Shown one piece after another: positions 15,009-55,738 of a stretch of 64,000 bases of DNA. Source of the stretch: a phage; sequence record PZ229304.1; one strand, written 5' to 3'. How positions within the stretch are numbered: position 1 is the first letter of the stretch; every line of letters begins with the position of its first letter. The position numbers and the translations under genes were made by a program. The notes under the pieces are model-generated. The model was given only the letters and a program-made list of their open reading frames with translations. It was not told the DNA's origin and made no database searches.

Positions 15009-16202
15009 ATGGCAGCACCAAAATCATGGGAACAATATAAAGAAGAGTGTCAACCTATTGCGAATAATAAAGGGATTGAGATCCTAGGATATGTTGAACC
15101 GTTTATAGGTTGTGATACGAAAATGATTCTACGCTGTAGGCAGGAACATGAATGGAAGACTTGTAGTATTAGTAATTTCAAGCACGGTAACAGTTGTCCT
15201 ATCTGTTCTGGTAAGAAGCCGTTAACATGGGAAACAGAATTGCCGATCTTGGAAGAGATAGCACAGAAGAAGGGGTATCAGGTGTTAGGGTACGTTGGAG
15301 AATGGAAAGGGAATAAAACAAAACTTGATTTGTTGTGCCATTGTGGGAATAGATGGCAAAGTACAGCAATTCATCAATTTAAAGGCGGTCGAGGTTGTCC
15401 ACAATGTAGGGGGGAGAATACAAGGAAGGCACTAACAATGTCCGACGATCAACATATTGCAGATTTCTTTTCTACAGGGAAATTTAAGGAAGGCACTATC
15501 TTCACTAACACAGGAACACGGAGTAAAGGATGCAGGCATAGTATCTGGATGGTTGAATGTCCTGTTTGCTCTCATGATGAATATGTTCAAGCAGGTGTTT
15601 GTGATGGTAAATTTTACTCTGAAGGAAATAACCTTAAACGAGGGTGCATTCCGTGTCGTTGTGGAAACTATCGGTATACAGAAGACCAGATCACCTATAG
15701 GGTAAAAAAGGAAGTAGAAGGGCAAGGGTATGTCTGGGTAGGTTGGATCGGTAAACCGTCTAGAAGTCACGGTAAGTTTAAATATCTTTGTCTTGTGCAT
15801 GGGGAACAGACAGGGAGGGCTAATAACTTATTAAGCCTCGGTCAAGGTTGTCCACAGTGTGCTGGTCATAATCAACAGCAATTATATATTAATATTGTTA
15901 AAGATAATGATATTATAGTGGCTCTTAAGTTTGGTATAGCTAAAGATAGTGATAGGCGATTAAATAGTCAAAATAGTTGTAATATGTTTTTTATGGAGCG
16001 TATTTGTTTATATGATTTTAGCACAGTGAAACAATGTAAGGCTGCTGAAAGAGCTATAAAGAAAAAATTAAAAACTGGTATTTTAACGGAAAGAGAGTTG
16101 AAAGACGGTTATACAGAAACAGTAAGTGTTTCTGATTTGGAAAATCTTCAAGAAATTATTACACAACATGGTGGCAAATTAGTATATAATAAGGAGATGT
16201 AA
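15009..16202 (+). CDS. tandem zinc-ribbon repeat protein with C-terminal GIY-YIG-like (T5orf172-type) putative nuclease domain
   Basis: About four repeats of GY..G.....K......C..GH.W.....F..G..CP.C.G (CPICSGKK, CPQCRGEN, CPVCSHDE, CPQCAGHN); C-terminus YINIVKDNDIIVALKFGIAKD..RRL..N...ERI.LYDF resembles the T5orf172/GIY-YIG pattern by recollection. Confidence 0.5.
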   Translation: MAAPKSWEQYKEECQPIANNKGIEILGYVEPFIGCDTKMILRCRQEHEWKTCSISNFKHGNSCPICSGKKPLTWETELPILEEIAQKKGYQVLGYVGEWKGNKTKLDLLCHCGNRWQSTAIHQFKGGRGCPQCRGENTRKALTMSDDQHIADFFSTGKFKEGTIFTNTGTRSKGCRHSIWMVECPVCSHDEYVQAGVCDGKFYSEGNNLKRGCIPCRCGNYRYTEDQITYRVKKEVEGQGYVWVGWIGKPSRSHGKFKYLCLVHGEQTGRANNLLSLGQGCPQCAGHNQQQLYINIVKDNDIIVALKFGIAKDSDRRLNSQNSCNMFFMERICLYDFSTVKQCKAAERAIKKKLKTGILTERELKDGYTETVSVSDLENLQEIITQHGGKLVYNKEM

Positions 16203-16754
16203 ATGCGGATTACTGATAAATATGTGTTCTTCTTCTCGGCAAAAGATGAATTTAGCAACTGGTATCTATCATCTTTTATTGAACCTTTAGCTCCCAAGTA
16301 TAATAATTCTATTACAAGTTCTGTTGAATTTACTTGTGTGGAACAATATATGATGTGGAGAAAAGCATGTTTGTTTTATGATTACAACATTGCATCTTCT
16401 ATTTTAACCGGAGATCTAAGATATACAGGAGAAAAAGAACAGGCATATTATAAGCGACTAGGTAGATTAGTTAAAGATTACGATGAAGCTACTTGGACTT
16501 CTTTACGGGAGAAGATTGTCAAGCGTGGTTTGTATCTTAAATACACACAAAATGAAGATCTCAAAAATAAACTTATCGCTTACGCAGATAAGGAGTTCGT
16601 AGAGGCAAGCCCTTATGATTCTATTTATGGTATCAAAATGGGAATGTGGGATCGTGATGTGGAAAATAAGGACTGTTGGAAAGGACAAAATCTTTTAGGA
16701 AAATGGCATACAGACCTTGCTGTTTATCTAAAAGCACAATCTGATATTTCCTGA
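16203..16754 (+). CDS. NADAR (YbiA-like, DUF1768) domain protein
   Basis: FFFSAKDEFSNWYLSSF, FTCVEQYMMWRKACLF and SPYDSIYGIKMGMWDRD..KDCWKGQNLLGKWHTDLAV parallel the YbiA motifs FYS..D.YG.FSNF, TSEHYFQA.KF and D.YWG.G..G.G.N.LG. Confidence 0.7.
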   Translation: MRITDKYVFFFSAKDEFSNWYLSSFIEPLAPKYNNSITSSVEFTCVEQYMMWRKACLFYDYNIASSILTGDLRYTGEKEQAYYKRLGRLVKDYDEATWTSLREKIVKRGLYLKYTQNEDLKNKLIAYADKEFVEASPYDSIYGIKMGMWDRDVENKDCWKGQNLLGKWHTDLAVYLKAQSDIS

Positions 16755-16967
16755 TATTTTGAAAATTTTTATTTTTATAAAAAGGGGTGTGGGTTTCATG
16801 TACGGAAATCCACCCTCTGAATAATATATCCAGAGTAAATATTATTCTGTACTCTGTTAATAAAGTATTTAATTTGTTTGTTGGACTATGGTATCTGATC
16901 TTTAAAAGGCATACTATCTCTTAACTACTACTTATAACAGAACAGTAAAATCATTTTTATAAAAAGG

Positions 16968-17170
16968 ACAAAATTATTTAAAGTTTTTACAGATTTTTGG
17001 GTACAAATTTTGAAAATGAAAAGTTCAAGTTTGGTCAAAATTATTTAAAGTTTTTGTATGTATTTCTATCCAGATTTTGAAAATGAAAACTTCAATTTTT
17101 TAAAAATTCCCCAGTTTATTTAAAGTTTTTTTGCCTTTTTCCGTAGAAAAATCAAAAATGAAAAGTTCAA
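16968..17170. repeat. three tandem direct repeats of about 67-72 bp (TATTTAAAGTTTTT ... TTTTGAAAATGAAAAGTTCAA), iteron-like
   Basis: Read directly in non-coding DNA. Confidence 0.6.
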
Positions 17171-17196
17171 TTTCGTGTTTTTATAGGTGTGCGTAT

Positions 17197-17306
17197 GATA
17201 ATCATTCTCATTTGTAAATGAGAATCATTATCATTTAAGTATGTAAGTGATAATCATTCTCATTAAGAGAATGAGAATCATTAGCAAATGAGAATTTTTC
17301 TCATTT
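17197..17306. promoter_or_regulatory. cluster of Fur-box-like palindromes (GATAATCATTCTCATT x2, AATGAGAATCATTATC)
   Basis: AAATGAGAATCATTATC matches the Fur consensus GATAATGATAATCATTATC at about 16/19 by hand. Confidence 0.45.
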
Positions 17307-17567
17307 AGAGAATAACGCGCAGGGGCGGTGTTTGTCTCGCGCTCCCGTGTCCCCTCGCCATACAATAAGAATAGCATAACCAACAACAAAAGCAAGCGAT
17401 TATTTTTATCTTTACATTTCTTTACAAATTTATTTTAGACGAGCTACCGGCGATCAACCTTCCAACCAGTGCCCCCTGGTATGTTAGCCCCGCCTTTACG
17501 CCGTGGGGGTGGCGCTTCCTCTTCTGTATGTAAAACAGTATAAGCCCGATCCCTGGGCTTGTCAAGA

Positions 17568-17834
17568 TTATTTTTTGTTTTCTTGCCAGGATAGGACACC
17601 TAACCAAAAATACATGTCGCCCCGCGCCCCTGGTGGGATCTTGCTTTCCCCGCCGCCACTGCAAGCCCATAGATAACCATTAGCGAACGGATCAAAGTTT
17701 TCTATTTCTTCCACCTTATGATCGCCCAGGTTGAGAACGGTTTCGACCTTTAAGCCCGTTGCGCTTGCTACCTGGTGCACCGTGCCGCCTTGCCAGCCCA
17801 ATGAGTGCATAAGGTGTAAAGTAGTATTTGTCAT
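17568..17834 (-). CDS. hypothetical protein (uncertain)
   Basis: 88-aa ORF with ATG and weak RBS in a GC-rich stretch where overlapping spurious frames are common. Confidence 0.25.
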   Translation of the reverse strand: MTNTTLHLMHSLGWQGGTVHQVASATGLKVETVLNLGDHKVEEIENFDPFANGYLWACSGGGESKIPPGARGDMYFWLGVLSWQENKK

Positions 17835-17933: not shown

Positions 17934-18266
17934 TTAAAAAAATGGTTGACGTTCCTCACCTGGTAGCGTAATATTCATCTTGTCGAGGGGGGCAAGGCAC
18001 AACGACAATAAACAATAGGCGGGTGCAATGCATGACGGGCAAAGGTGAGGATCTCCACAATCCACCGTCACAATAACATTACTTATAAAAGGTTGATAAC
18101 GATGATCAAGAAAGAAAATAGCTTGACGGTTGGAACGATTAACGCTATCATTCTCGCCGTTCCATTTTGGATTGTAGTGGCGGTTGTTATTTTCTAAAAA
18201 ATATTCTTGACAACGTTTTTTAATCTGATAAGATGTATCACATAGGGCGGCAATAGTGCCGCTCAT
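17934..18266 (-). CDS. hypothetical Cys-rich protein (uncertain)
   Basis: 110-aa ORF with ATG start, but its 5' end overlaps the promoter/hairpin of the first plus-strand cassette. Confidence 0.2.
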   Translation of the reverse strand: MSGTIAALCDTSYQIKKRCQEYFLENNNRHYNPKWNGENDSVNRSNRQAIFFLDHRYQPFISNVIVTVDCGDPHLCPSCIAPAYCLLSLCLAPLDKMNITLPGEERQPFF

Positions 18267-18286
18267 AACAGAAGAGAGAAATAATC

Positions 18287-18559
18287 ATGGCATCATATAG
18301 CGCATCAATGATCGTAGCTGGCATCACTGGTAAACCTATGCGCGGTGGCGGATCTTTCGCTAACATCAATATTGATGGACGTTTATCCCTGGACGCAGCG
18401 ATCACCGTGGCACGGGAAACGTTTAAAAAAGAATGTAATTTCAATAAACAAGATTATCTCGGTTTCGCTATTGAAAAAACCGCGCGATTTGTGGATTATA
18501 AAAGCCCGAAAATGATCGACACTACACTAAAAGCGCAAGATGTAGCGTTTTTGCTTTAA
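18287..18559 (+). CDS. hypothetical protein (cassette gene)
   Basis: Preceded by TTGACA promoter, CACATAGGGCGGCA..TGCCGCT hairpin and AGAGAG RBS. Confidence 0.5.
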   Translation: MASYSASMIVAGITGKPMRGGGSFANINIDGRLSLDAAITVARETFKKECNFNKQDYLGFAIEKTARFVDYKSPKMIDTTLKAQDVAFLL

Positions 18560-18562
18560 GGC

Positions 18563-18622
18563 TTGACACTGAAAAATACTTTGTTAATATATACCACATA
18601 AGGCGGGGAAATGGTTTCCCGC
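18563..18622 (+). promoter_or_regulatory. sigma70-type promoter (TTGACA-N16-TAATAT) plus 5' leader hairpin GGCGGGGAAATGGTTTCCCGCC
   Basis: Read directly; same architecture recurs through the array. Confidence 0.6.
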
Positions 18623-18645
18623 CAAATCAAAGAAAGGGTAATGCA

Positions 18646-19008
18646 ATGAGCAAGCAAATCAATACTATCATGTTTAATCTGGTATCTTTCCGCGATGACG
18701 TGAAAAACCTTTCGCGTGGTGCAGTGGATGCACGGATCGAAAGCTATCGCACACAGATCGCAACGTTACCGCTGAAACGTGATCAACATGCCGCTAATAT
18801 GATGCTTGATGCTATGATTAAAAAGATGATTCAATGTGATCTTACTCTGGCTTATGAATATGCTGGCGATCTCTTTGTAACGTATAACAAGCCCGTTCCA
18901 GGTATGAGCACCACGGAAGAATTGCATGCCTTAAATCTGCGACAAGATGCATGGGATAACATGCGCCGTGTTATGGTATGGGTAGAAAGCGGCAAAATTT
19001 ACGCGTAA
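18646..19008 (+). CDS. hypothetical protein (cassette gene)
   Basis: 120-aa track ORF downstream of promoter-hairpin unit. Confidence 0.5.
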   Translation: MSKQINTIMFNLVSFRDDVKNLSRGAVDARIESYRTQIATLPLKRDQHAANMMLDAMIKKMIQCDLTLAYEYAGDLFVTYNKPVPGMSTTEELHALNLRQDAWDNMRRVMVWVESGKIYA

Positions 19009-19083
19009 AGATTGACATTACACGAAAACCTGATAAGCTATCTTAAAGCGGGAATAGTTCCCGCTTACATAGGATAAAACTTT

Positions 19084-19230
19084 ATGAAACAATATGTAAT
19101 GAGTATTCATACCAAAAACGGCGCTACTGTTACGACTCCGGCACGGTTTGCACTTGTAAACCGTTGCAAGAGACTAAAACGAGAGCTAAAAAATAACCGT
19201 GCAACCGGTTTTAAACGCTGGGGAGGATAA
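19084..19230 (+). CDS. small basic protein (48 aa)
   Basis: Own translation MKQYVMSIHTKNGATVTTPARFALVNRCKRLKRELKNNRATGFKRWGG; preceded by TTGACA promoter and GCGGGAATAGTTCCCGC hairpin. Confidence 0.3.
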   Translation: MKQYVMSIHTKNGATVTTPARFALVNRCKRLKRELKNNRATGFKRWGG

Positions 19231-19232
19231 TC

Positions 19233-19493
19233 TTGTTTTTTCTAAAAGTTTTTGATAATGTGATCGCTTTTGAACATGCTACGACGTTCGACCTGGCGAG
19301 ATACGCTATCAGGTTTAAAGATAATGTTTATCCCCGTGCTGGCGGCGGTTACACTATTTTTAATCATCGTAACGCTCAATTAACGGATATAACTAATCCA
19401 GGCCCTGGAGTGTATCGCATAGGCTGGCTACCGTCAAAAGACGCGGCAAGCATGTTTAAGGTATGTAAACTACTAACAGAAGAGGCGAACTAA
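19233..19493 (+). CDS. hypothetical protein
   Basis: 86-aa track ORF, TTG start just after GGAGGA. Confidence 0.35.
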   Translation: MFFLKVFDNVIAFEHATTFDLARYAIRFKDNVYPRAGGGYTIFNHRNAQLTDITNPGPGVYRIGWLPSKDAASMFKVCKLLTEEAN

Positions 19494-19494
19494 C

Positions 19495-20049
19495 ATGGGG
19501 CGTGAGTATGTGATCCAGTCCTGGGTAAAGCATGACGCTAATGATCCGCGCATAATACCAGATGACATGATCGATCACATGGTAGGGTATAGCGGGGAGC
19601 AGATAGGAAATCGAGCGGCAAAGAGCAACGGCAACACAAAGGCGCGATCCGTTCGCCCTGGTTGGCTGGCAAATGGTAACGCTGACATTGCAAGCGCCGC
19701 AGATCCAAGCGATGACGCTAAAAATAATCCCTTGTACAGCATTGATCCGGCTTTTAAGGTGTTGGAAGAGTATCCCGCTAAATTAGCCGCACTAGATAAG
19801 GCATACGAAGAAAAGCGCATGGCATGGACTGTATACAACACCGCTAAAATGGTGCTAGATGCAAAATTGATTAAAGCCCAGGAGAAGATCAATAAACTTG
19901 TTACCATAGCGCAAGAGGAAGACCAGGACGACCAGGAGGAAGAGGAAGAAATCATGCCTATCCTGGAAGAGGAAGAGATCCAGCCATACATGCCGACGGA
20001 AGAGGAAAAAAGACAAGCCCTAAAAAATTACGAAAATTGTATTGTGTAA
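19495..20049 (+). CDS. hypothetical protein with acidic C-terminus
   Basis: 184-aa track ORF; the longer antisense frame 19575-19991 is treated as a shadow. Confidence 0.45.
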   Translation: MGREYVIQSWVKHDANDPRIIPDDMIDHMVGYSGEQIGNRAAKSNGNTKARSVRPGWLANGNADIASAADPSDDAKNNPLYSIDPAFKVLEEYPAKLAALDKAYEEKRMAWTVYNTAKMVLDAKLIKAQEKINKLVTIAQEEDQDDQEEEEEIMPILEEEEIQPYMPTEEEKRQALKNYENCIV

Positions 20050-20195
20050 GGCTTGACATATGCAAACAAGCCCCGTAATATGTACCACATAAAGCGGGGC
20101 AACGCCCCATAAGGTGAAATAAAAAATCACTTGACACCTGAAATCAGTAAGCTATAATGCTTATATAGATTGAAACATTACTAAGGAATAAAAGC

Positions 20196-20375
20196 ATGGC
20201 TATTATTGCAAAGACTGAGATCGTAGGTTTAGATTCTATCATCCTGGCATATGAGGAAGCTATAGAAATGTATGTGGTTTCCTATGGTGATTATATCCGT
20301 GAATATAAATCTATTGATCTAGCTTTTGAATGTTATATTCGCCAGGTAAATAAAGCATACGATGATTATCGTTAA
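20196..20375 (+). CDS. small hypothetical protein (59 aa)
   Basis: Own translation; TTGACA-N17-TATAAT promoter at 20131-20160 and AAGGAA RBS. Confidence 0.3.
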   Translation: MAIIAKTEIVGLDSIILAYEEAIEMYVVSYGDYIREYKSIDLAFECYIRQVNKAYDDYR

Positions 20376-20470
20376 AAGTTTTAGTCTTGTGCTATTGACA
20401 ACGAACGATAGTACAAGCATAATAACTTTTATCGGGAATACTCCTAACTAATCAAAAGAGATTAAAGACT

Positions 20471-20836
20471 ATGGCTAAAAATATCAATGTTTCTGCTTAT
20501 GCTACCCTGGCTAACACTGCTAAAATTGAACTATCCAGCATTGAAGCGGTACATATTAGCGCCCGTCGCTGGTTTCAAAAGTCTTATGGTAATACTTATT
20601 TCTCTTTGATGGTTGACGTTGAGATCGGCGGTAAACTGATTGAAGTCGTTAACGTTCCGTTTCAATATGGCTACGGGGATCATTTTGATACCGTTGCCCT
20701 AGAAGAGTTTAGCAAGGTTATCAACCTGGAAGGTAAAGACTTTTCAAATTATGCTTACCTTTCCCGCTTTTGCCGTGATAATGGGATCGCTGTATACAGT
20801 CATGCAAGCGATGTTAAACGTAAAAAAGATTTATAA
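20471..20836 (+). CDS. hypothetical protein (cassette gene)
   Basis: 121-aa track ORF with TTGACA promoter at about 20394. Confidence 0.5.
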   Translation: MAKNINVSAYATLANTAKIELSSIEAVHISARRWFQKSYGNTYFSLMVDVEIGGKLIEVVNVPFQYGYGDHFDTVALEEFSKVINLEGKDFSNYAYLSRFCRDNGIAVYSHASDVKRKKDL

Positions 20837-20924
20837 AAAGCATTGACAGCACGAATAAAAAGCATATAATACTTATATCGAGAGCGGGAATAGTTCCCGC
20901 CTCACTGAAAAAGAGATTAACATC

Positions 20925-21164
20925 ATGGCTAAATCTAAAATGTACAACGGTCACAAAAATAAAACTCATTGGAATGTAAGCCTTTGGATCAACAATGATG
21001 AAGGTTTTTATAATCTTGCACGTGAATTTATTGCAGCTAACACCAATAAGAATGACGCAGCGCGTGATATGATGCTATTTCTTGAAAGTATGGATCAAGA
21101 TAAAACGCCAGACGGTTACAAGTTCAGTAAAACTGCAATCCGCGCCGCGATGGTTGGAATGTAA
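20925..21164 (+). CDS. hypothetical protein (cassette gene)
   Basis: 79-aa track ORF; TTGACA-N16-TATAAT and GCGGGAATAGTTCCCGCC hairpin upstream. Confidence 0.5.
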   Translation: MAKSKMYNGHKNKTHWNVSLWINNDEGFYNLAREFIAANTNKNDAARDMMLFLESMDQDKTPDGYKFSKTAIRAAMVGM

Positions 21165-21259
21165 AGGAGACATAAAAATGAAACATCGTTCGACCTATCT
21201 CACAAAACGTTTTAGCTTAGATCATAAATTGGGCTATTACGGAAGAAATAGAAAATAAT

Positions 21260-21319
21260 TTGACAACGTTTTAAATTAGTGTAATATATATCACATAGGG
21301 CGGGAAATGGTTTCCCGCC
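21260..21319 (+). promoter_or_regulatory. sigma70-type promoter (TTGACA-N17-TAATAT) plus 5' leader hairpin GGCGGGAAATGGTTTCCCGCC
   Basis: Read directly. Confidence 0.6.
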
Positions 21320-21341
21320 AAATCAAAGAAAGGTTATCATT

Positions 21342-21569
21342 ATGGCTATCGTTATTGTTCGCGTATCCGGTACGGTTGGAATCTCTCAGGTAGTAGCAGT
21401 TATCACAGAGAAGAAAGGAGATGATCTTCACTCCTCCTTGAATAGCTGGGCGGTCGCTAATTTTGGGCAATGGTCGAGCGTTGAGTACATCGAATCCTAC
21501 CAGGTGCCAACGATTAGCCTGACCGATCTGAATGTTGATCGCTTGTTGTGCCTGGATCAATTAAATTAA
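21342..21569 (+). CDS. hypothetical protein (cassette gene)
   Basis: 75-aa track ORF. Confidence 0.45.
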   Translation: MAIVIVRVSGTVGISQVVAVITEKKGDDLHSSLNSWAVANFGQWSSVEYIESYQVPTISLTDLNVDRLLCLDQLN

Positions 21570-21655
21570 AAATAATATTGACAAGATAACTAAAATCAGT
21601 AAAATGTAATGCATAGGGCGGCACTATTGCCGCCCTAGTGAGAGAGATTATCAAA

Positions 21656-21871
21656 ATGGCTAATATCCGCACACTGTTAAAAAATGCAAGTCAAGTTTTA
21701 TTTTCAGATGACGAATATTTTAATAAAGATATTACAGGCGTGAAAAATTTAAAAGACGTGAAGGATGTTATCGGTATCCGTGGATCTTTACGTAAAGGTG
21801 ACATATACGGTAACAAGGTGCAGTATAAACTGTCAAAAGATTATGATTTTACTTTGACAATTATTTCATAA
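21656..21871 (+). CDS. hypothetical protein (cassette gene)
   Basis: Trimmed to ATG at 21656 (MANIRTLLKN) because the track start lies inside the leader hairpin. Confidence 0.45.
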   Translation: MANIRTLLKNASQVLFSDDEYFNKDITGVKNLKDVKDVIGIRGSLRKGDIYGNKVQYKLSKDYDFTLTIIS

Positions 21872-21962
21872 AACTACTTGCAAACCTGGTAAAATAAAGT
21901 AAACTATATTCATTAAGGCGGTGGAATAGCCAACCGCCTAACAAAGAGAAGAGGAAAACATC

Positions 21963-22133
21963 ATGATCACTTTCGCTACCCGTGAAGCCGCTCGCAACGT
22001 TGCACGTAAAGTTAACGCCGCCAACCTGGGCGCTACGCTTAAAGCCCCGGTAAAAGATGAATCAGGAAAATGGATCTTCCCTGGTCTGCGTCACGCTGAT
22101 AAGCTGGGAACATTAACGTTAAAAAATAAATAA
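21963..22133 (+). CDS. small hypothetical protein (56 aa)
   Basis: Own translation MITFATREAARNVARKVNAANLG..; promoter, hairpin and AGAGAAGAGGA RBS upstream. Confidence 0.4.
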   Translation: MITFATREAARNVARKVNAANLGATLKAPVKDESGKWIFPGLRHADKLGTLTLKNK

Positions 22134-22140
22134 TATTCGC

Positions 22141-22199
22141 TTGACAGTAGCATCATTTATAAGTAAAGTAACAACAACGGCGGGAAATGGTTTCCCGCC
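22141..22199 (+). promoter_or_regulatory. sigma70-type promoter (TTGACA-N17-TAAAGT) plus leader hairpin GGCGGGAAATGGTTTCCCGCC
   Basis: Read directly. Confidence 0.6.
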
Positions 22200-22219
22200 A
22201 TCAATAAAGAGATAAGATT

Positions 22220-22579
22220 ATGAAATCAGCAAAAGCAATTAAAACTTACATTTTGTCGGCTATTTCTTTTGATGGTACTACAACCGAAAAAGAAAAAATC
22301 ACCGAACTGATGCGCCGTTTTAATTCTGAATACTGGTATCCCGATAATCAAAAACGTTACAATTATAACGTGATCAAGGCGATAGCCTCATGGTTACAAG
22401 GTTTACCGTCAGAAATCAATATTGCTTTTGATTATAACGAGATCGATCACTTGTTAATTGAATGGAAGTACATAAAAGAAACAAGCAAAGAAACAACCGT
22501 TACCCGTGAGCGGGAAAATTATTGGTTATATATTGCAAGCATGATCGTAATCCTGGCAAAACAGCATAACGTGGCGTAA
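22220..22579 (+). CDS. hypothetical protein (cassette gene)
   Basis: 119-aa track ORF. Confidence 0.5.
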   Translation: MKSAKAIKTYILSAISFDGTTTEKEKITELMRRFNSEYWYPDNQKRYNYNVIKAIASWLQGLPSEINIAFDYNEIDHLLIEWKYIKETSKETTVTRERENYWLYIASMIVILAKQHNVA

Positions 22580-22594
22580 TTAAGAGGAAGAAAC

Positions 22595-22732
22595 ATGAAC
22601 GCATCACAGCAGATCGAAAAATTCAACCGCAGCAAGGCGCGTAAAGATTGGAACGAAGAGATCACCAAAAAAGGTGACAAGCGGAACAAAACAAAGAGAG
22701 ATCGCAGCACAAAAAGATACTGGAACGAATAA
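22595..22732 (+). CDS. small basic protein (45 aa)
   Basis: Own translation; AAGAGGAAG RBS; terminator immediately after. Confidence 0.3.
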   Translation: MNASQQIEKFNRSKARKDWNEEITKKGDKRNKTKRDRSTKRYWNE

Positions 22733-22735
22733 CAA

Positions 22736-22762
22736 AAAAGGGCGCAATAAGCGCCCTTTTAG
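22736..22762 (+). terminator. intrinsic terminator
   Basis: AGGGCGCAATAAGCGCCCT hairpin plus T-run. Confidence 0.6.
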
Positions 22763-22850
22763 CTTATATAGAGGCTTGTTACCCATAGGCAATGGTAACG
22801 CCAGGGCAAGCCTATAAATCAACGTTAGACGGCTTTACAGGAGCTTTAAA

Positions 22851-23033
22851 ATGAGATTAGAAGAAATAAGCAAGGCACTAGCCCAGGGGCAAAGGTTAAA
22901 CGCCCGTTATCGTGATCAATATGGTTTCATAACTAGCGGCGTGATCCTGGGGATTGAAGACAATAAGATTTTTATTGACACGTTGAAAAACGTTGTATAT
23001 AGTGACAATATAATCTCAATAAAACATATATGA
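22851..23033 (+). CDS. hypothetical protein
   Basis: 60-aa track ORF. Confidence 0.35.
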   Translation: MRLEEISKALAQGQRLNARYRDQYGFITSGVILGIEDNKIFIDTLKNVVYSDNIISIKHI

Positions 23034-23041
23034 GGCAAGAA

Positions 23042-23443
23042 ATGAAAAAATTATTGATCGCTGGTTTACTCTCTTTTGGCATGGTTGGAACATCTAGCGC
23101 GGCGATATCCTCCACAGTAGCAGAATTAAGCGCCGTTGATGCAATGGAAAACGTCATGCTTATTAACAATGCGATCCCCGATGAAATCATGGAGGATTCA
23201 CACATGATCGCTTATGGTGCTGTTACACAACTAACGGCAAAAATAGATAAATCTATTGTTAATGGCTTAAATGAAGATGTACCATGTGAAATTATTACAA
23301 GTGTGCTGACTACTCAAAATTTTACGCCGTGGTTAAAAAGTATTCAAAAAGTACACAGTACAGCCGCAGATCGTAGCAATGAAAAACTAGTGTCAGCACT
23401 TGCAACGTATACCCTGGCAAAATGCACCGAGATAAAAGATTGA
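23042..23443 (+). CDS. secreted protein with signal peptide
   Basis: Trimmed to ATG 23042; MKKLLIAGLLSFGMVGTSSAA is a typical Sec signal. Confidence 0.5.
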   Translation: MKKLLIAGLLSFGMVGTSSAAISSTVAELSAVDAMENVMLINNAIPDEIMEDSHMIAYGAVTQLTAKIDKSIVNGLNEDVPCEIITSVLTTQNFTPWLKSIQKVHSTAADRSNEKLVSALATYTLAKCTEIKD

Positions 23444-23490
23444 CAACATAGAAAGCACGTTATAAGATACACACAACAAAGGAGAACTAC

Positions 23491-23787
23491 ATGAACGGCA
23501 TAGCTAAAACGTTTTTTCTTTTTTCTGGTGTAAATGATCCATCAATAAAAGTCGATAGTGTAAAAGAAAACAATACTATCACAGCTAAATTGTATCAAGA
23601 TGAAACAAATAACGTGCTAATCATTAATCTTAAAGAAATAACAAAAGGTTATTATGCTATTGCTTACCATGCGATTTATCATGCTGGTACTAGTGAGGAA
23701 GTGCAAACAAGCAACAACGAAAGCGCGGCGCTACCTGGTGATCTGGTGCTGGGCGTTATCAGTTTAATTGTCAATGATTTTTTTTAA
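23491..23787 (+). CDS. hypothetical protein
   Basis: 98-aa track ORF with TTGACA promoter at about 23443. Confidence 0.45.
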   Translation: MNGIAKTFFLFSGVNDPSIKVDSVKENNTITAKLYQDETNNVLIINLKEITKGYYAIAYHAIYHAGTSEEVQTSNNESAALPGDLVLGVISLIVNDFF

Positions 23788-24123
23788 GGAGTAAAACCAT
23801 GCCCTATTTACATTTATTTTTCGGTATCTTATTGACGGGATCTTTTTTCTTCTGTATGCTTGTTTCTATTGTAAACCACGTTTTAAGACATTAAGGAAAC
23901 AGCATGAAAATTATTCCCGTACAATATAGCGTAATAAATCCAGCATACGAGGAAGGAAGGAAAACAAGCATGGCTTTATGTTGTATTACTACTATAGCCA
24001 TGTTGTTATACATTGTGTTTTAATAGGTTTTATAGTTGTACGCTTTAAAGGCTTGACAATTTTTTGTTATGCTTTAAACTATATCTTGAAAACGGCAAAG
24101 GCCGCAAACAAAAGGGTAAAATT

Positions 24124-24447
24124 ATGAAATCTGTGATCGGTGTTTATTTGGATAACTCTGATTTTTTCTATCATCGCGCTCGTTTCCTTGATGCGATTGA
24201 AATGATAGAATCAGGCTTTAAAGAGTATCGCCTTGCACATGATGACCTGGAAGCATTACAGGGCAATAGTGTTTTTACATTGCAAGCGAAAGCACTATGT
24301 AAAAGCCGGATCGACATTGCGAGCAAAAAGATAGAACGCGGCATGTCCTGGTTGCGCACCGCAGAAATCAACATGGGGCAATGGCACGGCGAAAACTTAG
24401 AAAATAAACATACTTTTGTCAATGTAGAAAATATTGAAGATTATTGA
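24124..24447 (+). CDS. hypothetical protein
   Basis: Trimmed to ATG 24124 (MKSVIGVYLD). Confidence 0.45.
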   Translation: MKSVIGVYLDNSDFFYHRARFLDAIEMIESGFKEYRLAHDDLEALQGNSVFTLQAKALCKSRIDIASKKIERGMSWLRTAEINMGQWHGENLENKHTFVNVENIEDY

Positions 24448-24510
24448 TTGACAGCACACCTGATAAGTAGTATATTGTATCTCATAGAGCGGGGAAATGG
24501 TTTCCCCGCC
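24448..24510 (+). promoter_or_regulatory. sigma70-type promoter (TTGACA-N17-TATATT) plus leader hairpin GCGGGGAAATGGTTTCCCCGC
   Basis: Hairpin carries a compensatory G:C pair relative to the common GGCGGGAAA/TTTCCCGCC form. Confidence 0.6.
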
Positions 24511-24529
24511 TTAAAAGAAGAGATAAGCT

Positions 24530-24814
24530 ATGAAGATCACAAAAGCACTTTCCAACTATGCAGCACGTCGCGGCTTATGTTTAACCGTTGAAAACCTGGG
24601 GAAAGAAGATTTTTTGTGCTTTTGGGAGCTTGAGAATGATAATGAGTGGATCTTCTCTTATTCTATCTGCGAAGATCAAAACGGTTGTTTATTAACCTGG
24701 CGCGGTAATATCTATCTACCGGAAGAAATCAAAGAAGAATTGCCAGGCACGATCATGACTGAGAAACAGCTTAAGGAAGTGATCAATTTTGTAGGGCAAA
24801 ACATTAAAAAATAA
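24530..24814 (+). CDS. hypothetical protein (cassette gene)
   Basis: 94-aa track ORF. Confidence 0.5.
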   Translation: MKITKALSNYAARRGLCLTVENLGKEDFLCFWELENDNEWIFSYSICEDQNGCLLTWRGNIYLPEEIKEELPGTIMTEKQLKEVINFVGQNIKK

Positions 24815-24815
24815 T

Positions 24816-24875
24816 TTGACACCAGGCAAACAACGTAGTAAAGTTTATCACATAGGGCGGGAAATGGTTTCCCGC
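24816..24875 (+). promoter_or_regulatory. sigma70-type promoter (TTGACA-N17-TAAAGT) plus leader hairpin
   Basis: Read directly. Confidence 0.55.
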
Positions 24876-24897
24876 TCACAACAAAAGAGAACAAATC

Positions 24898-25068
24898 ATG
24901 ATCCCGACTATGTTTTACGTATCGCGCAAAGGTCACAATATTTTTTGGTCTGAAGATTTAAATGAAGCCATGACGTTTGCCCGTGATCGTGTTGCTATCG
25001 GTGGCGTTAACATTACTGTAACCGATGAAAACGGCATTGAATACTATAACGGCGACGATGAAGAGTAA
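24898..25068 (+). CDS. small hypothetical protein (56 aa)
   Basis: Own translation MIPTMFYVSRKGHNIFWSEDLNEAMTFARDRV.. Confidence 0.35.
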   Translation: MIPTMFYVSRKGHNIFWSEDLNEAMTFARDRVAIGGVNITVTDENGIEYYNGDDEE

Positions 25069-25115
25069 TTAATGAGGCGGGGGAGTATTCCCCGCCGTCA
25101 ATAAAGAGGTAAATC

Positions 25116-25385
25116 ATGAAAATATCATTTGACGTTGCAATCAAGGCCATCGAATCCGGTTACACCCTGGTAAAAGATGATAAGGCTAAAATAGTGCATC
25201 ATGTTAACAAGGAAACAGGCGAAAGCATGATCACATATAAAGCCGCCTACTTTCTCCAATCAGTAGCAGATCCGCGCGTACAGCGCCAGGTCACGGCGGC
25301 TATTGCTAAAAAATTATGTGCTTTACAGGGCACAAGTTTTAACGAGATCCCGCCGTGTTTTGACTGGTCGAGCTTGAAAAAATAG
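25116..25385 (+). CDS. hypothetical protein (cassette gene)
   Basis: 89-aa track ORF; hairpin variant GGCGGGGGAGTATTCCCCGCC upstream. Confidence 0.5.
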   Translation: MKISFDVAIKAIESGYTLVKDDKAKIVHHVNKETGESMITYKAAYFLQSVADPRVQRQVTAAIAKKLCALQGTSFNEIPPCFDWSSLKK

Positions 25386-25581
25386 TTTGACAATATGCGG
25401 TTATCTGGTAAAGTGTACCACGTAGGGCGGGGCAATAAGGCAACGCCCACTAATGAGGGTAAAATCATGTTAGAGAAAATTTTCACGGTTGTAGTAGTGG
25501 GCCTGGCGTTATCGGTTGGATTGGTTGCAACTATGGCTAACATGATCCTATCTTCCCACGGTATTGGATAAGGTGAATCAA

Positions 25582-25815
25582 ATGATCACGAATAAGACAG
25601 GTAAAACAGAATTTTTACGCGGCTTGCAAATAGGTAAACCTGAAATCTGGCATTGCACTAAAACACCACGTGACGAAATGAAAGATTTCACCGCTACTTT
25701 ACAACGTGTTAAAATATCTATCACACAGAAAAAAGCCTTGTTAGTAGTAGAAAACGAGATCCCGCAAACCAGATCGGGAATGATTTACATTTTACCCGTA
25801 ACGGTCACGGCGTAG
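25582..25815 (+). CDS. hypothetical protein
   Basis: Trimmed to ATG 25582; a 34-aa membrane peptide ORF lies just upstream (25468-25572). Confidence 0.4.
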   Translation: MITNKTGKTEFLRGLQIGKPEIWHCTKTPRDEMKDFTATLQRVKISITQKKALLVVENEIPQTRSGMIYILPVTVTA

Positions 25816-25943
25816 GCTTTTGGGATCGCCCTGAAATATACACTACTAACACCGCCAACCGCCTAACAAATGCGGCTAAATTAATGCCATCGGTGCATGC
25901 TTACATTGGTGAAGATAATTTGATTTATATTGAATAAAAAGTA

Positions 25944-26003
25944 TTGACACCGATCCCCCAATATGTTACTATTTACCACGTAGGCGGGAAATGGTTTCCC
26001 GCC
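25944..26003 (+). promoter_or_regulatory. sigma70-type promoter (TTGACA-N17-TACTAT) plus leader hairpin GGCGGGAAATGGTTTCCCGCC
   Basis: Read directly. Confidence 0.6.
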
Positions 26004-26026
26004 AGGTAATCAAAAAGGTAAATACT

Positions 26027-27586: not shown

Positions 27587-27600
27587 ATGACACTTCACAC

Positions 27601-27629
27601 CAGGGCGCACAAAGCGCCCTTTCTTTTTA
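27601..27629 (+). terminator. intrinsic terminator
   Basis: AGGGCGCACAAAGCGCCCT hairpin plus TTCTTTTT. Confidence 0.65.
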
Positions 27630-27833
27630 CCTAAATAAAGATGATAGCTTTTACCTATCAAAAACGTTCACCGAAAAAAGTGAATAGATCGCGGTATCGA
27701 GCTAATCAAGGAGCAGATGAACAACCATACCATGAAGATCATAAGGCGCTTACAGCGTGTTTTAGACCGCTTATTTTTAATTTCTTCATGCAACTATTTG
27801 GCAAAAACAGCCTTTTTCTTGTCTTTCCTCTTA

Positions 27834-27907
27834 AATGATAATCATTCTTATTTATAGCTGATTATTTATGCAATAAACTGCATAATGCAATAATGATAAT
27901 CATTCTT
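27834..27907. promoter_or_regulatory. two Fur-box-like sites (AATGATAATCATTCTTA and AATAATGATAATCATTCTT)
   Basis: Second site about 16/19 to the Fur consensus by hand. Confidence 0.45.
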
Positions 27908-27909
27908 AA

Positions 27910-28255
27910 CTTATGACCATCTAACCTATAAAATAATAAGTTATCTAACTAAATTAAAACTAATTATCTTACTTTTATTTATAACTTACTGTTACTATCT
28001 CATTGATAACCTTATATTAAACAACAATAACTAATATAAATCATTACTAAGCTAAATATAATCTATCTAACCTTTAAAACTATAACTATAATCTATTGAA
28101 TTATTGCACAAAGTAACTATTAAATCGTTAGTAACATTACTAAATAATTAATATCCTATCTATTTATGATCTAATCTTTACATTCCTATCTATTACCTAA
28201 ATAATCATTTCATATAGTAATCATTTCATACAATAACTATAACAAGAAATATAAT
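27910..28255. other. G-poor, AT-rich non-coding tract with short reiterated motifs (CTAAC, CTATC, TAACT)
   Basis: Strong strand asymmetry visible by eye; no ORF. Confidence 0.5.
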
Positions 28256-28274
28256 TCGCAAGCGTATCATTAGC

Positions 28275-28440
28275 AGCCTATGCCGGACACATAGGCGGCT
28301 AATAATAACGCAACTACACACCCCACATAATAACTATCACCGATAGTTATTATTTGTGCTTATGTAGCTTGCAACAACTGCAAGCGCAACAATATACATG
28401 GTATATTGTATCCCTTACATTGTTGCGGTGCGTTATTATT
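28275..28440. repeat. cluster of nested palindromes / inverted repeats
   Basis: GCCTATG..CATAGGC, ATAATAACTAT..ATAGTTATTAT, CTTGCA..TGCAAG, ATATAC..GTATAT, and a long-range pair TAATAATAACGCAAC / GTTGCGGTGCGTTATTATTA. Confidence 0.55.
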
Positions 28441-28766
28441 AGCTAATGTTTAGAACATTGGCTATAATATAAGCTAAATCATAAGCTATGCAATAATAAA
28501 CATGGTGAATAATGACATTGATGATCATAATGCGCCACCTTCCAGGGGGCGCTATGTGAACACAAAGAAATCTTTCTTGTCAAGAAAATATTACTACTAT
28601 TGCGCAAAATTATTTATATCTGAATAGATGATTTTTTATGCTATTGCCCCCTTGATTATTACTATTTGTTGCCCTAACTATTGTCATTTGTTGAGCCTAC
28701 TTTCTTAAAAGCGCAATAAATCAGAATTATCTTGATTTTTAGTCGGTTTTATAGTACAGAAAGTAT

Positions 28767-28785
28767 GCAAATGATAATCATTATC
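28767..28785. promoter_or_regulatory. near-consensus Fur-box-like site GCAAATGATAATCATTATC
   Basis: 17/19 identity to GATAATGATAATCATTATC by hand. Confidence 0.5.
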
Positions 28786-28951
28786 AGCTATCTTCCACGG
28801 GTGGCACTATTTCACGCCAGATCATTTCATTTGGCAAGGTGTATATAGATGTTTAGAAATGCCAAGCCATTGATTTACTTAGAATTTATCTGTTTTGTTG
28901 TGAGTAGTGCCTTTCTTGCTCAGAAAATAATCAAAAGTCTTATAAGTCATT

Positions 28952-28983
28952 GAATGATAATGCAAATGATAATTATTCTCATT
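28952..28983. promoter_or_regulatory. degenerate Fur-box-like repeats
   Basis: GAATGATAATGCAAATGATAATTATTCTCATT. Confidence 0.35.
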
Positions 28984-29428
28984 GATATTTGAGGGGGACG
29001 GTCGGCAGAAATCGGGGGGCGCTGAAAATCGCGTTAAGCACCTCTCGCAAGCGAGCAGTATTTTGCGGCAAGTTATTGATATTATTGACTTTACGCTTAA
29101 GAAAAGGGGGCGTGTCGAAATAAATCGGGTATACCGGAAAATTTTTGTGGCATAGATATTTATTTGTCTATATTATGTACAAAGGGGTGTGTTAAAAATA
29201 ATAGGTATATATAGAATAATTGATAGGGAAATCCTATACTAAATCCTTCATTAATGATGTTCCTATGTTGCTGTTCTTGTAATAGATGAAAAGACGCTAT
29301 ATGATGTGTGGCATGAAACGTAAACTTATAAGATGCAAATAATGCTTGCATTGAATAGAAATGTCTATACACTGTGTTTCATAAGATATGCAATATCGCG
29401 CATAACAAACTACTAATGAGAGGTGTAA

Positions 29429-41260: not shown

Positions 41261-42073
41261 TTACTTAGTCAAATGATCTTCTATCATTTTTATGAAAGCA
41301 GGATTGCTAAAAGCATCTGCTGCCTTTTCTCTATAAACAAAGACTCCTCTATCTTCGTAAAGAAGAGTTTCTTCGTAATTAATTCCTGGGTTAACAACAA
41401 TCATTTTTGTACCCATAGTAAGTGCAGGGAATAATTCCCAATTAAAATTGATAACTTGGTTTGAACATCCTACTACAACAACCAAATCTTGCATGGTCAA
41501 AGTATCAAACAAGTGAGCCATATCTGCATACAAAGGTGCAGCCTCACCAAAAAATACAACATTAGGCTTCACCCAGTTATAATCATCTATGTTTATACTA
41601 TTGTAACCAATGTCTACCAGTGTTTTGTAATCTCCAGGATGCATACGGTAAACTACTTCAGGAAGATATCCGTGCACGTGAATAACAGAATCCCTGTCTA
41701 CACCTGCTCGCTCTAGTAGGTCATCAACGTTTGTTGTCAAGTTTACTACTTGGTTAGGATATTCCTTAAACCACTTTGCTATTTGAATATGTGCAGCATT
41801 AGGTTGTACATCTTTAAGCTCAACACGTCTTTTGTTATAAAATTCGTGTGTTTTGGCATACAAATCCATACCGTTTTCGTCTACACCACCAACCACTGGA
41901 AGATCTGGTGATGTTCTCACACGATAACCTGCTTGGAAAGCTCCAATATCGCAGATCTCTTCTAAATCCCATTCTTCCCATAGGGCACGACCACTATCTG
42001 TGTCTGTTCGGAATGTTCGAATCCCACTGTCTGCACTTAAACCAGCTCCACTAACAAAAATTACTCTTCGCAT
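41261..42073 (-). CDS. Sir2-family (sirtuin-like) NAD-dependent protein lacking the zinc-binding Cys module
   Basis: GAGLSADSGIRTFR, TTNVDDLLERAG, HG, PNVVFFGE motifs; no CxxC..CxxC pairs. Confidence 0.7.
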   Translation of the reverse strand: MRRVIFVSGAGLSADSGIRTFRTDTDSGRALWEEWDLEEICDIGAFQAGYRVRTSPDLPVVGGVDENGMDLYAKTHEFYNKRRVELKDVQPNAAHIQIAKWFKEYPNQVVNLTTNVDDLLERAGVDRDSVIHVHGYLPEVVYRMHPGDYKTLVDIGYNSINIDDYNWVKPNVVFFGEAAPLYADMAHLFDTLTMQDLVVVVGCSNQVINFNWELFPALTMGTKMIVVNPGINYEETLLYEDRGVFVYREKAADAFSNPAFIKMIEDHLTK

Positions 42074-53202: not shown

Positions 53203-53469
53203 TTACTCCGCAATCTGAGCCATGAATTCACGTAGTTCAGAAAAACCTCCTACGTGGGTTAGCTGTTCACCATCTTCCACAAAAATCTGAGGAAATGTGC
53301 GTGGTAGAACACCTGTTTTCTCTAAAACCAGATTCTGAATCTGATCTAAAGAATAGTCTTCATCTAAGGTAAGGTATTTAAAATCCTGTTCACGCTGTTC
53401 TAGTAGAATCTTAGCGTTAGTGCAGAAAGGACAATTTGGTTTACCGTAGATAATAAAATTCATTTTCAC
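53203..53469 (-). CDS. glutaredoxin-like protein
   Basis: CPFC active-site motif near the N-terminus, 88 aa, positioned with the RNR genes. Confidence 0.7.
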   Translation of the reverse strand: MKMNFIIYGKPNCPFCTNAKILLEQREQDFKYLTLDEDYSLDQIQNLVLEKTGVLPRTFPQIFVEDGEQLTHVGGFSELREFMAQIAE

Positions 53470-54296
53470 TCCTTGTTTAAAAGTATAGTTAAAGTTCTTA
53501 CAATACCGCTATCAACACTTCGCGGATTTAAAGTAGGATCTGTTTTTAAATAAGATGTTGCTGGTCTGACTGCTTTGGAATTATAGGTTGAAGCAGATAC
53601 AGGATTAACTGTAACAGACAAATCTATAACAAGAAATATCTTTCGTGCAAAATCATACCAAGAAATATAATCTGCACCTGCATAGTGTACAATTTTACTA
53701 TTTACACCATCTTTTACAAGTTTAAAAATTGTTTCTGCAAGATCAGGTGCATAAGTAGGACATGATAAATGATCACATACTACATTAAATTCTTTTTGAC
53801 CACCGTTGTAGCGTTCCAACATAGTTTTCAAAAAGTTATGTCCAAATTCACTATAAACAGAAGCTGTTCTGATAATAAGTGCTGTAGGACAAACTGCTTG
53901 TACTAAAGTTTCACCTAATTGTTTACTGTAACCGTAGGTGTTCAAGGGGTTTGTTTTACTCTCTTCTGTGCCAGCAACATGTCCATCAAAAACATAGTCT
54001 GTTGAAATATGTACAAACTGTATCAGTAAATCATTACATGCTTTGGCAATGTTTGTTGCACCGTATGCATTAACATTTATACAGGTGTTAACATCTTCTT
54101 CAGCTTTATCTACTGCCGTGTAAGCCGCACAATTCACAACAACATCAGGCACGTGCTGTACAAGACTATTCATAACATCTTTAAAGTTGGTAATGTCTAT
54201 ATCACTTGCTTCAATCAAAATAACATCTTCGGGCGCAACTTTTGCCAAAGACTGTCCTAATTGACCTTTTGAACCAAAGACTAAAAATTTTGTCAA
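53466..54296 (-). CDS. rmlD: dTDP-4-dehydrorhamnose reductase
   Basis: GSKGQLG, PDVVVNCAAYTAVDKAE, HISTDYVFDG, YGYSK motifs. Confidence 0.75.
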   Translation of the reverse strand: MTKFLVFGSKGQLGQSLAKVAPEDVILIEASDIDITNFKDVMNSLVQHVPDVVVNCAAYTAVDKAEEDVNTCINVNAYGATNIAKACNDLLIQFVHISTDYVFDGHVAGTEESKTNPLNTYGYSKQLGETLVQAVCPTALIIRTASVYSEFGHNFLKTMLERYNGGQKEFNVVCDHLSCPTYAPDLAETIFKLVKDGVNSKIVHYAGADYISWYDFARKIFLVIDLSVTVNPVSASTYNSKAVRPATSYLKTDPTLNPRSVDSGIVRTLTILLNKE

Positions 54297-54847
54297 AATA
54301 TGATCTCCTTTAGTGTTTTGGCTTGCTGATCTTTTTGTGACAAGATAGGTTTAAAATTAATATCATTAAAGATTAAATCAAAACCCCAATCTATATTGAT
54401 ATCTGGATCATTCCACGCAAGACTACACTCTGAAGTCGGATCGTAATATTCTGTACATTTATATTCAAAATCAGCAATGTCGCTAATCACAACAAAACCA
54501 TGAGCGAAACCAGGAGGAATCCAAAATTGTGTTTTATTCTTTTCAGATAAAAGAACACCTACCCATTCTCCAAATGTTGGACTACCAACCCTAATATCTA
54601 CAGCAACATCATAAACTTCACCACGAACACAACGTACTAACTTCCCTTGTGGGTTTTTCTTTTGAAAATGAAGCCCACGTAGAACTCCTCGAATAGAACG
54701 TGAGTGGTTATCCTGGACAAAGTTTTGTTTACCTATGTATTGATCATATAAAGCCTGATTAAAACTTTCTAAGAAAAAGCCACGTTCATCTCCGTAAACG
54801 TCAGGTTGAATGATCAACAAATCTTCGATTTTTGTTGCTTGAATCAT
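54293..54847 (-). CDS. rmlC: dTDP-4-dehydrorhamnose 3,5-epimerase
   Basis: YGDERGFF, VLRGLHFQ, KLVRCVRGEVYDVAVDIRVGSPTFGEW, IPPGFAHGF. Confidence 0.8.
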   Translation of the reverse strand: MIQATKIEDLLIIQPDVYGDERGFFLESFNQALYDQYIGKQNFVQDNHSRSIRGVLRGLHFQKKNPQGKLVRCVRGEVYDVAVDIRVGSPTFGEWVGVLLSEKNKTQFWIPPGFAHGFVVISDIADFEYKCTEYYDPTSECSLAWNDPDINIDWGFDLIFNDINFKPILSQKDQQAKTLKEIIF

Positions 54848-54860
54848 TTAATTCCCCCTT

Positions 54861-55730: not shown

Positions 55731-55738
55731 ACTCCTCC

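Follow-up and report, generated by a model that had tools for sequence, protein, structure and literature searches.

The phage DNA analysed here carries a gene whose product is very probably a stand-alone, orphan NADAR ADP-ribosylglycohydrolase belonging to the AdfN-Bas60 type and countering the DarTG1 defence. The gene occupies positions 16203..16754 on the + strand of the window, by which we mean the whole 64,000-nt stretch of record PZ229304.1 that was analysed. This assignment is based on the NADAR domain and its fold, on conserved catalytic residues, on the gene's orphan context and on the near-identity of the protein to one that has been tested experimentally. The neutralization of DarT1 and the rescue of phages are taken from the literature on a 98%-identical orthologue and would, by analogy, extend to the protein described here. 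Around the gene, the DNA has 98.7% identity to Escherichia phage vB_vPM_PD06 and 93–96% to many genomes of Justusliebigvirus (Stephanstirmvirinae, E. coli myophages of about 146 kb), and, judged by these identities, we assign the window to an E. coli myophage of that genus.

Domain, motifs and fold of the NADAR protein

The open reading frame begins with ATG and encodes 183 amino acids followed by a stop codon. The earlier note had called its product a phage-encoded NADAR protein and had named a profile search against NADAR/DUF1768 as one means of refuting that reading. The search was strongly positive: the protein matches Pfam PF08719 with 126 bits (E = 2.3e-36; gathering cut-off, 35.1 bits), the match running over residues 13–168 and over positions 9–154 of the 163 in the profile. 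NCBIfam TIGR02464 is matched as well (109.8 bits; cut-off, 73.7), a model that covers the NADAR domain broadly and therefore does not discriminate between subfamilies. Further matches are to PHROG 1017, to which no function is assigned in that collection (E = 4.4e-50), to the PADLOC model PDC-M42C, which describes a NADAR-type member of a candidate anti-phage system (E = 1.9e-34), and, weakly, to NCBIfam DS32_2, 'NADAR family anti-phage protein' (25.9 bits against a cut-off of 240). Going by the latter two models, NADAR domains serve in defence as well as in counter-defence.

The homologue set comprised 532 sequences with E <= 1e-5, every one carrying PF08719, and 60 of them were taken for alignment. 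Among the residues invariant across these 60 sequences are S18, E47, K54, E134, D139, G143, G161, N163 and G166. Three YbiA-like sequence blocks had been read from the letters in the earlier note; all three are present, together with a fourth, confirming that the NADAR blocks can be recognized from raw sequence:

16251..16265, + strand: block 1, FSNWY, residues 17–21; S18 invariant, W20 at least 90% conserved
16338..16367, + strand: block 2, VEQYMMWRKA, residues 46–55; Glu47 (16341–16343) and Lys54 (16362–16364), both invariant
16596..16634, + strand: block 3, FVEASPYDSIYGI, residues 132–144; contains Glu134 (16602–16604); D139 and G143 invariant
16677..16700, + strand: block 4, WKGQNLLG, residues 159–166; G161, N163, L165 and G166 invariant

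The solved structure nearest by sequence (phmmer) is 8bau, the NADAR of Phytophthora nicotianae (E = 2.5e-12), a eukaryotic, stand-alone protein that is the best match by sequence and by fold and has the EQY..K and (Y/V)EAS..D..(W/Y)GI motifs in common with the phage protein. In the phmmer alignment, E47 and K54 fall within a common EQY(M/F)M.RK motif (EQYFMKRK in 8bau) and E134 within a common (V/Y)EAS motif, where 8bau has the Glu of its YEAS. Because of the +7 spacing, Glu47 and Lys54 would correspond to E43 and the following Lys of the P. nicotianae protein and to E88 and K95 of the E. coli C7 NADAR, and by alignment Glu134 would be the counterpart of P. nicotianae E125 (numbering of Schuller et al.). 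According to Schuller et al., most of the superfamily keeps both the Glu that is E43 in P. nicotianae and E88 in E. coli C7 and the Lys that follows it at a distance of seven (K95 in C7); P. nicotianae E125 contacts the distal ribose; the E125 position holds a catalytic Asp in DarT1-associated NADARs and a His in T4-type phage NADARs; and the aligned catalytic positions either coordinate the distal ribose or catalyse hydrolysis (PMC11543638). Because E134 stands at the position that is Asp in DarG1 and His in the T4 type, the active site of this NADAR is of the ancestral 'Glu-type'.

An AlphaFold2 model built on the 60-homologue alignment has a mean pLDDT of 97.3 and a pTM of 0.91. It shows the NADAR fold, a helical core with small beta hairpins flanking it, and is superimposable on solved NADARs. 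Foldseek against the PDB returned only two significant matches, 8bau in complex with ADP-ribose (TM 0.77, E = 1.3e-9, 28% identity) and 2b3w, E. coli YbiA (E = 6.2e-6, TM 0.69–0.75, 22% identity in the fold alignment). The residues that mark a NADAR, a Glu and a Lys seven apart with an acidic residue or His at the E125 position, are present as E47, K54 and E134.

Orthologues, and the activity of AdfN-Bas60 against DarT1

In phage Bas60 (PaulScherrer, BASEL) the orthologue is bas60_0111 (QXV83846.1), annotated by BASEL as 'putative YbiA-like N-glycosidase'. The two proteins are of equal length and are identical, without gaps, at 180 of 183 positions; the three substitutions (N62S, A96D and A178T) lie at non-conserved positions and touch no invariant or near-invariant column. 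The window, Bas60, Bas62 and muut share the gene order AAA ATPase, CapR/T5orf172 protein, NADAR, and AdfN-Bas60 (Bas60, Bas61 and Bas62) has the same position after the first two genes and the same conserved non-coding region downstream; near-identity and conserved synteny together mark the window gene as an orthologue of AdfN-Bas60. The NADAR protein of phage outra is 100% identical to that of the window, and 56 more phage records carry a copy at >=95% identity. More widely, a detectable homologue is present in 717 phage records, many of them of Staphylococcus, Listeria, Enterococcus and Bacillus myophages.

Johannesman, Carlson and LeRoux (bioRxiv 2024; Nat Commun 2025;16:1598; PMC11825919) describe T4 gp30.3 as a NADAR-family anti-DarT factor, AdfN, and report, from a search of the BASEL phages, a distinct NADAR in Bas60, Bas61 and Bas62 that the authors named AdfN-Bas60. 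In that account, AdfN-Bas60 supplied from a plasmid neutralized DarT1 toxicity in uninfected E. coli and allowed three DarTG1-sensitive phages, RB69, T5 and Bas25, to regain their full titre on a host with DarTG1, and it gave no rescue of T5 on a host carrying the thymine-modifying DarTG2; the evidence presented there is from ectopic expression. The same authors place AdfN-Bas60, in a phylogeny, among bacterial NADARs that are neither DarT-associated nor of the YbiA type, and they conclude that it was acquired independently of the T4 lineage (PMC11825919). The proposal in the earlier note that the gene encodes an eraser of guanine ADP-ribosylation, and an antidote to DarT1-type defence, gains support from these results on a 180/183-identical protein. 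That reading is correct but not new, the function having been published in 2025 for the 98%-identical AdfN-Bas60. From the in vivo tests of AdfN-Bas60 we infer that the window protein is likewise a guanine-ADP-ribose glycohydrolase, and on DarTG1 hosts the native phage would be expected to depend on it.

The DarTG1 defence ADP-ribosylates guanine in DNA, and the bond that NADARs hydrolyse is the one made by DarT1 between ribose C1'' and guanine N2 (PMC11543638). On infection of a DarTG1 host, DarT1 would use NAD+ to attach ADP-ribose to the phage DNA at guanine N2, and this modification would block phage replication. The phage NADAR would then bind the ADP-ribosyl-guanine and hydrolyse the N-glycosidic bond that links ribose C1'' to guanine N2, presumably using the Glu47/Lys54 pair together with the acidic Glu134 in the same way as characterized NADARs, so that ADP-ribose would be released and the DNA returned to its unmodified state. 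The target would be the modification and not the toxin, and other phage factors would not be needed. Because it would act on the modification, the enzyme should work against any guanine-N2 ADP-ribosyltransferase.

Two other groups of NADARs perform the same reaction. AdfN-T4 (gp30.3), likewise an orphan phage NADAR, reverses the ADP-ribosylation of guanine and acts against DarTG1; its efficient action is confined to T-even infection, in contrast to the Bas60 type, which neutralizes DarT1 unaided (PMC11825919). Membership of the T4 gp30.3 clade was rejected for the window protein: BLASTP detected no pairwise similarity to gp30.3 (E = 2), hhalign gave a weak match (probability, 8.9%), and T4-type NADARs have His, which hhalign places opposite E134, where this protein has Glu. 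DarG1 of E. coli C7 and of G. lovleyi belongs to the same fold family and catalyses the same hydrolysis of guanine-N2-ADP-ribose on DNA. However, DarG1 proteins are 229–234 amino acids long with an N-terminal extension, whereas the 183-residue phage protein consists of the core from its start, and they use a catalytic Asp (D171 in E. coli C7) in place of Glu. A DarG1-like toxin–antitoxin pair was rejected on these differences and on the absence of an adjacent ADP-ribosyltransferase or DarT gene.

The label 'YbiA-like' in the earlier note stands at the level of the superfamily, since E. coli YbiA has the superfamily, the fold and the third-position catalytic Glu in common with the phage protein. 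As a statement of close kinship it does not stand: the phmmer match to YbiA (2b3w) is marginal (E = 0.033 over 59 residues), and the orthologue falls in a non-YbiA group. This bears on a metabolic reading, in which the gene would be an auxiliary metabolic gene for an N-glycosidase like YbiA or plant COG3236, hydrolysing reactive riboflavin-pathway intermediates. Such a reading can appeal to the name of TIGR02464, 'riboflavin biosynthesis intermediates N-glycosidase', which is matched above its cut-off, to the BASEL name of the orthologue and to the presence of the YbiA-type Glu. We nevertheless consider it very unlikely, given the marginal similarity to YbiA in sequence and the low identity in the fold alignment, the absence of riboflavin (rib) genes from the annotation of the whole Bas60 genome, the position of the orthologue outside the YbiA group in the published phylogeny (PMC11825919), and the failure of YbiA to rescue cells from DarT1 toxicity in vivo, where the orthologue protects. 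NADARs that are active in vitro may not protect in vivo, as is the case for YbiA and for T4 gp30.3 in uninfected cells, and because of this, activity and physiological role can be separable in the NADAR superfamily, a caution for the anti-DarTG1 reading of the window protein too.

Setting of the gene and the DNA around it

The NADAR gene has a CapR/T5orf172 gene upstream and about 0.8 kb of non-coding DNA downstream:

15009..16202, + strand: CapR/T5orf172 gene (context); homing-endonuclease-like product in which four CapR-homology repeats are combined with a T5orf172 domain
16191..16196, + strand: Shine-Dalgarno sequence AAGGAG, read directly from the sequence, 6 nt before the NADAR ATG
16203..16754, + strand: adfN-type NADAR gene, orthologue of AdfN-Bas60 by Pfam NADAR match, identity, AlphaFold2 model and Foldseek
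16783..16818, + strand: 14-bp hairpin, 29 nt past the NADAR stop, without a U-run behind it

The TAA of the upstream gene (16200–16202) abuts the NADAR ATG and the two genes are co-oriented; because they abut, translation of NADAR is probably coupled to that of the upstream gene in one transcript, and NADAR would be the final gene translated in a + strand cluster. Past the gene, the RNA of the hairpin region (16755–16835) folds with -20.9 kcal/mol (z = -2.69), and the hairpin sequence itself (16783–16818) is conserved in Bas60, Bas62 and muut; judged from these features, it may be a transcript-end or stabilizing hairpin. Scans around the NADAR gene yielded 28 candidate promoters (23.3 in shuffles) and 7 candidate terminators (4.5 in shuffles), neither above expectation. 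Since both counts lie at the shuffled background, we claim no expression class for the gene.

The protein encoded upstream matches Pfam CapR in four stretches (E = 1.1e-38), T5orf172 (E = 2.3e-4) and PHROG 681, 'endonuclease'; PADLOC gave no match for it. It has 397 amino acids here, 467 in Bas60 and about 390 in Bas62, and relative to the Bas60 protein, with which it shares 77% identity, it has one CapR repeat fewer. To judge from the sequences, this variation in repeat number between close phages suggests repeat gain and loss. Neither upstream neighbour of NADAR matches a DarT model in PADLOC. Because the gene directly upstream does not encode an ADP-ribosyltransferase, the NADAR gene is an orphan, with no ADP-ribosyltransferase beside it.

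Directly 3' of the NADAR gene, the roughly 0.8 kb from 16755 to 17567 contain no convincing open reading frame. Compared between the window, Bas60, Bas62 and muut, this region has a per-column identity of 98%; the neighbouring endonuclease-like protein, for comparison, has the 77% identity given above (window versus Bas60). It includes three tandem AT-rich units of about 70–75 nt each (16953–17173) and a dense array of 15-bp palindromes, TGA(T/G)AATCATT(C/A)TCA, at 17196–17286, which we take to be a form of the Fur 7-1-7 box, TGATAATNATTATCA. Across the window, 10 Fur-like boxes with <=2 mismatches were found where 0.96 would be expected, a number reached by none of 100 shuffles. The remaining boxes cluster in a second ORF-poor gap of about 1.8 kb (about 27590–29428):

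27836, 27894, 28772 and 28967: Fur-like boxes of the second gap, the one at 28772–28786 being a perfect TGATAATCATTATCA

A G+C-rich segment lies behind two of the boxes in the second gap, as one does behind the 17196–17286 array. The literature on Fur boxes in phAPEC8-like phages yielded only an unrelated lambdoid sitABCD case. A host origin of the downstream non-coding DNA was rejected, as blastn in 'distant' mode found no homologue of it in 5,426 E. coli genomes. Rfam gave no match at gathering thresholds anywhere in the window, and between 16700 and 18300 only sub-threshold matches to miRNA models, caused by the palindromic repeats; the window contains no tRNAs. A structured minus-strand RNA at 17300–17530, which would lie downstream of a strong sigma-70-like promoter, was also rejected, its folding energy being no better than that of shuffles (z = 0.68). 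The region 16755–17567 could be an origin of replication, a binding array for Fur or a phage regulator, or a regulatory hub.

Beyond this region, an 88-amino-acid open reading frame on the - strand (17568–17834) coincides with a local G+C peak of about 50% between flanks of 23–35%; its product contains a GWQGGTVHQV motif and matches PHROG 19316, to which no function is assigned there, and no Pfam family. Just past its stop, a strong sigma-70-like promoter on the minus strand (TTGACA-17-TATACT, 17565..17537) points into the non-coding region. From 18207 to 26020, repeated cassettes stand between many small + strand genes (for example at 18207–18253, 18563–18640, 21260–21336, 22177–22216 and 25387–25433), each a sigma-70-like promoter (TTGACA-N17-TAnnAT...CACATAGG) followed at once by a GGCGGGAAATGGTTTCCCGCC stem-loop; we take them to resemble the promoter-early stem-loop (PeSL) cassettes of T4-type phages. 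Four - strand open reading frames at about 53466–56728 match, by position and length, the genes annotated in Bas60 for dTDP-rhamnose biosynthesis (rmlA-D-like); that genome has putative glycosyltransferase and 'disaccharide synthase' genes at other sites.

NAD+ and ADP-ribose enzymes and the possible range of the NADAR protein

Outside the Stephanstirmvirinae, the nearest homologues of the NADAR protein (40–45% identity) are encoded on phage-like metagenomic contigs of 310–455 kb. On one of these the NADAR gene lies directly behind a CTP_transf_like (NMNAT-family) gene and on another within 4 kb of a NAMPT gene (contigs L006, 3026–4477, and L008, 4001–8480), which hints that NADAR is tied to NAD+ salvage in jumbo phages. 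GIY-YIG endonuclease genes also occur near the NADAR homologues on these contigs. Within the window, a gene on the - strand (41261–42073) encodes a Sir2-family protein (Pfam SIR2, E = 2.8e-22; PHROG 2162), another NAD+-using enzyme, and Bas60, outside the region matching the window, has annotated genes for a macrodomain protein, a phosphoribosyltransferase, a PRPP synthetase and NAMPT. With Sir2 here and these genes in Bas60, the lineage carries a broad NAD+/ADP-ribose toolkit.

These associations raise the question of whether the NADAR protein might belong to such a toolkit rather than to DNA repair, its substrates being soluble immune signals derived from ADP-ribose, or breakdown products of NAD+, in which it would cleave N-glycosidic bonds. 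A role of this kind was proposed for most phage NADARs by Iyer et al. 2022 (PMC9503650), and it agrees with the setting of the 40–45% homologues, beside a CTP_transf_like gene or near NAMPT, and with the NAMPT, PRPP synthetase, macrodomain protein and sirtuin encoded elsewhere in the Bas60 genome. We regard it as improbable here. The NADAR gene of the window adjoins none of those genes but an endonuclease-like gene and non-coding DNA, the orthologue directly neutralizes a DNA-modifying toxin in uninfected cells (PMC11825919), and the proposal is older than the biochemical proof of guanine-ADP-ribose hydrolysis.

The Sir2-family gene would also allow an internal writer/eraser pair, in which NADAR reversed the ADP-ribosylation of phage or host macromolecules by an enzyme of the phage itself, the Sir2-family protein for example; some sirtuins do ADP-ribosylate (PMC9503650), and both genes lie in the same window. 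They are, however, 25 kb apart on opposite strands, the annotation of Bas60, the close relative, lists no ADP-ribosyltransferase domain, and ADP-ribose transfer by the Sir2 protein of the window is supposition. We consider a self-directed eraser extremely improbable.

A further question concerns the range of the enzyme. Through its Glu-type site, the protein could further act on ADP-ribosylated guanine in RNA and ADP-ribosylated cytidine in DNA or RNA, stripping off the ADP-ribose, and could thereby protect against several ADP-ribosyltransferase defences or toxins. All NADAR families tested remove ADP-ribose from guanine in RNA (PMC11833690). Cytidine-ADP-ribose is removed by the 'NADAR' and YbiA types, which have the conserved Glu, and DarG1 (Asp) and the T4 type (His) are not listed among the active enzymes (PMC12945103); this Glu is present here as E134. 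Wider targets are also suggested by Johannesman et al. themselves (PMC11825919). Against this, the parts of the NADAR literature we drew on cite no E. coli defence that produces ADP-ribosylated cytidine or ADP-ribosylated guanine in RNA, and we hold such a wider activity to be possible but on balance doubtful. It extends the explanation as a DarTG1-countering enzyme and does not replace it.

Because the ancestral Glu is kept, where the T4 type and DarG1 have replaced it, NADARs of the Bas60 type may be broad-spectrum. A more far-reaching proposal, which we put forward tentatively and think rather unlikely to hold in full, is that the Bas60-type NADAR removes ADP-ribose from nucleic acids broadly, from guanine and cytidine alike and in DNA as well as RNA, and works with the macrodomain protein, the NAMPT/PRPP-synthetase pair and Sir2 as a coordinated NAD+/ADP-ribose counter-defence toolkit. 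If true, this would mean resistance to ADP-ribosyltransferase-based defences beyond DarTG1.

For the reading we prefer, an AdfN-Bas60-type enzyme that counters DarTG1, the window adds little new biology, since the Bas60 orthologue was characterized in 2025. The same gene, at >=95% identity, is present in at least 56 deposited genomes of the Stephanstirmvirinae, and its product exemplifies anti-defence by an enzyme, here an orphan 'antitoxin' carried by a phage for the repair of ADP-ribosylated DNA.
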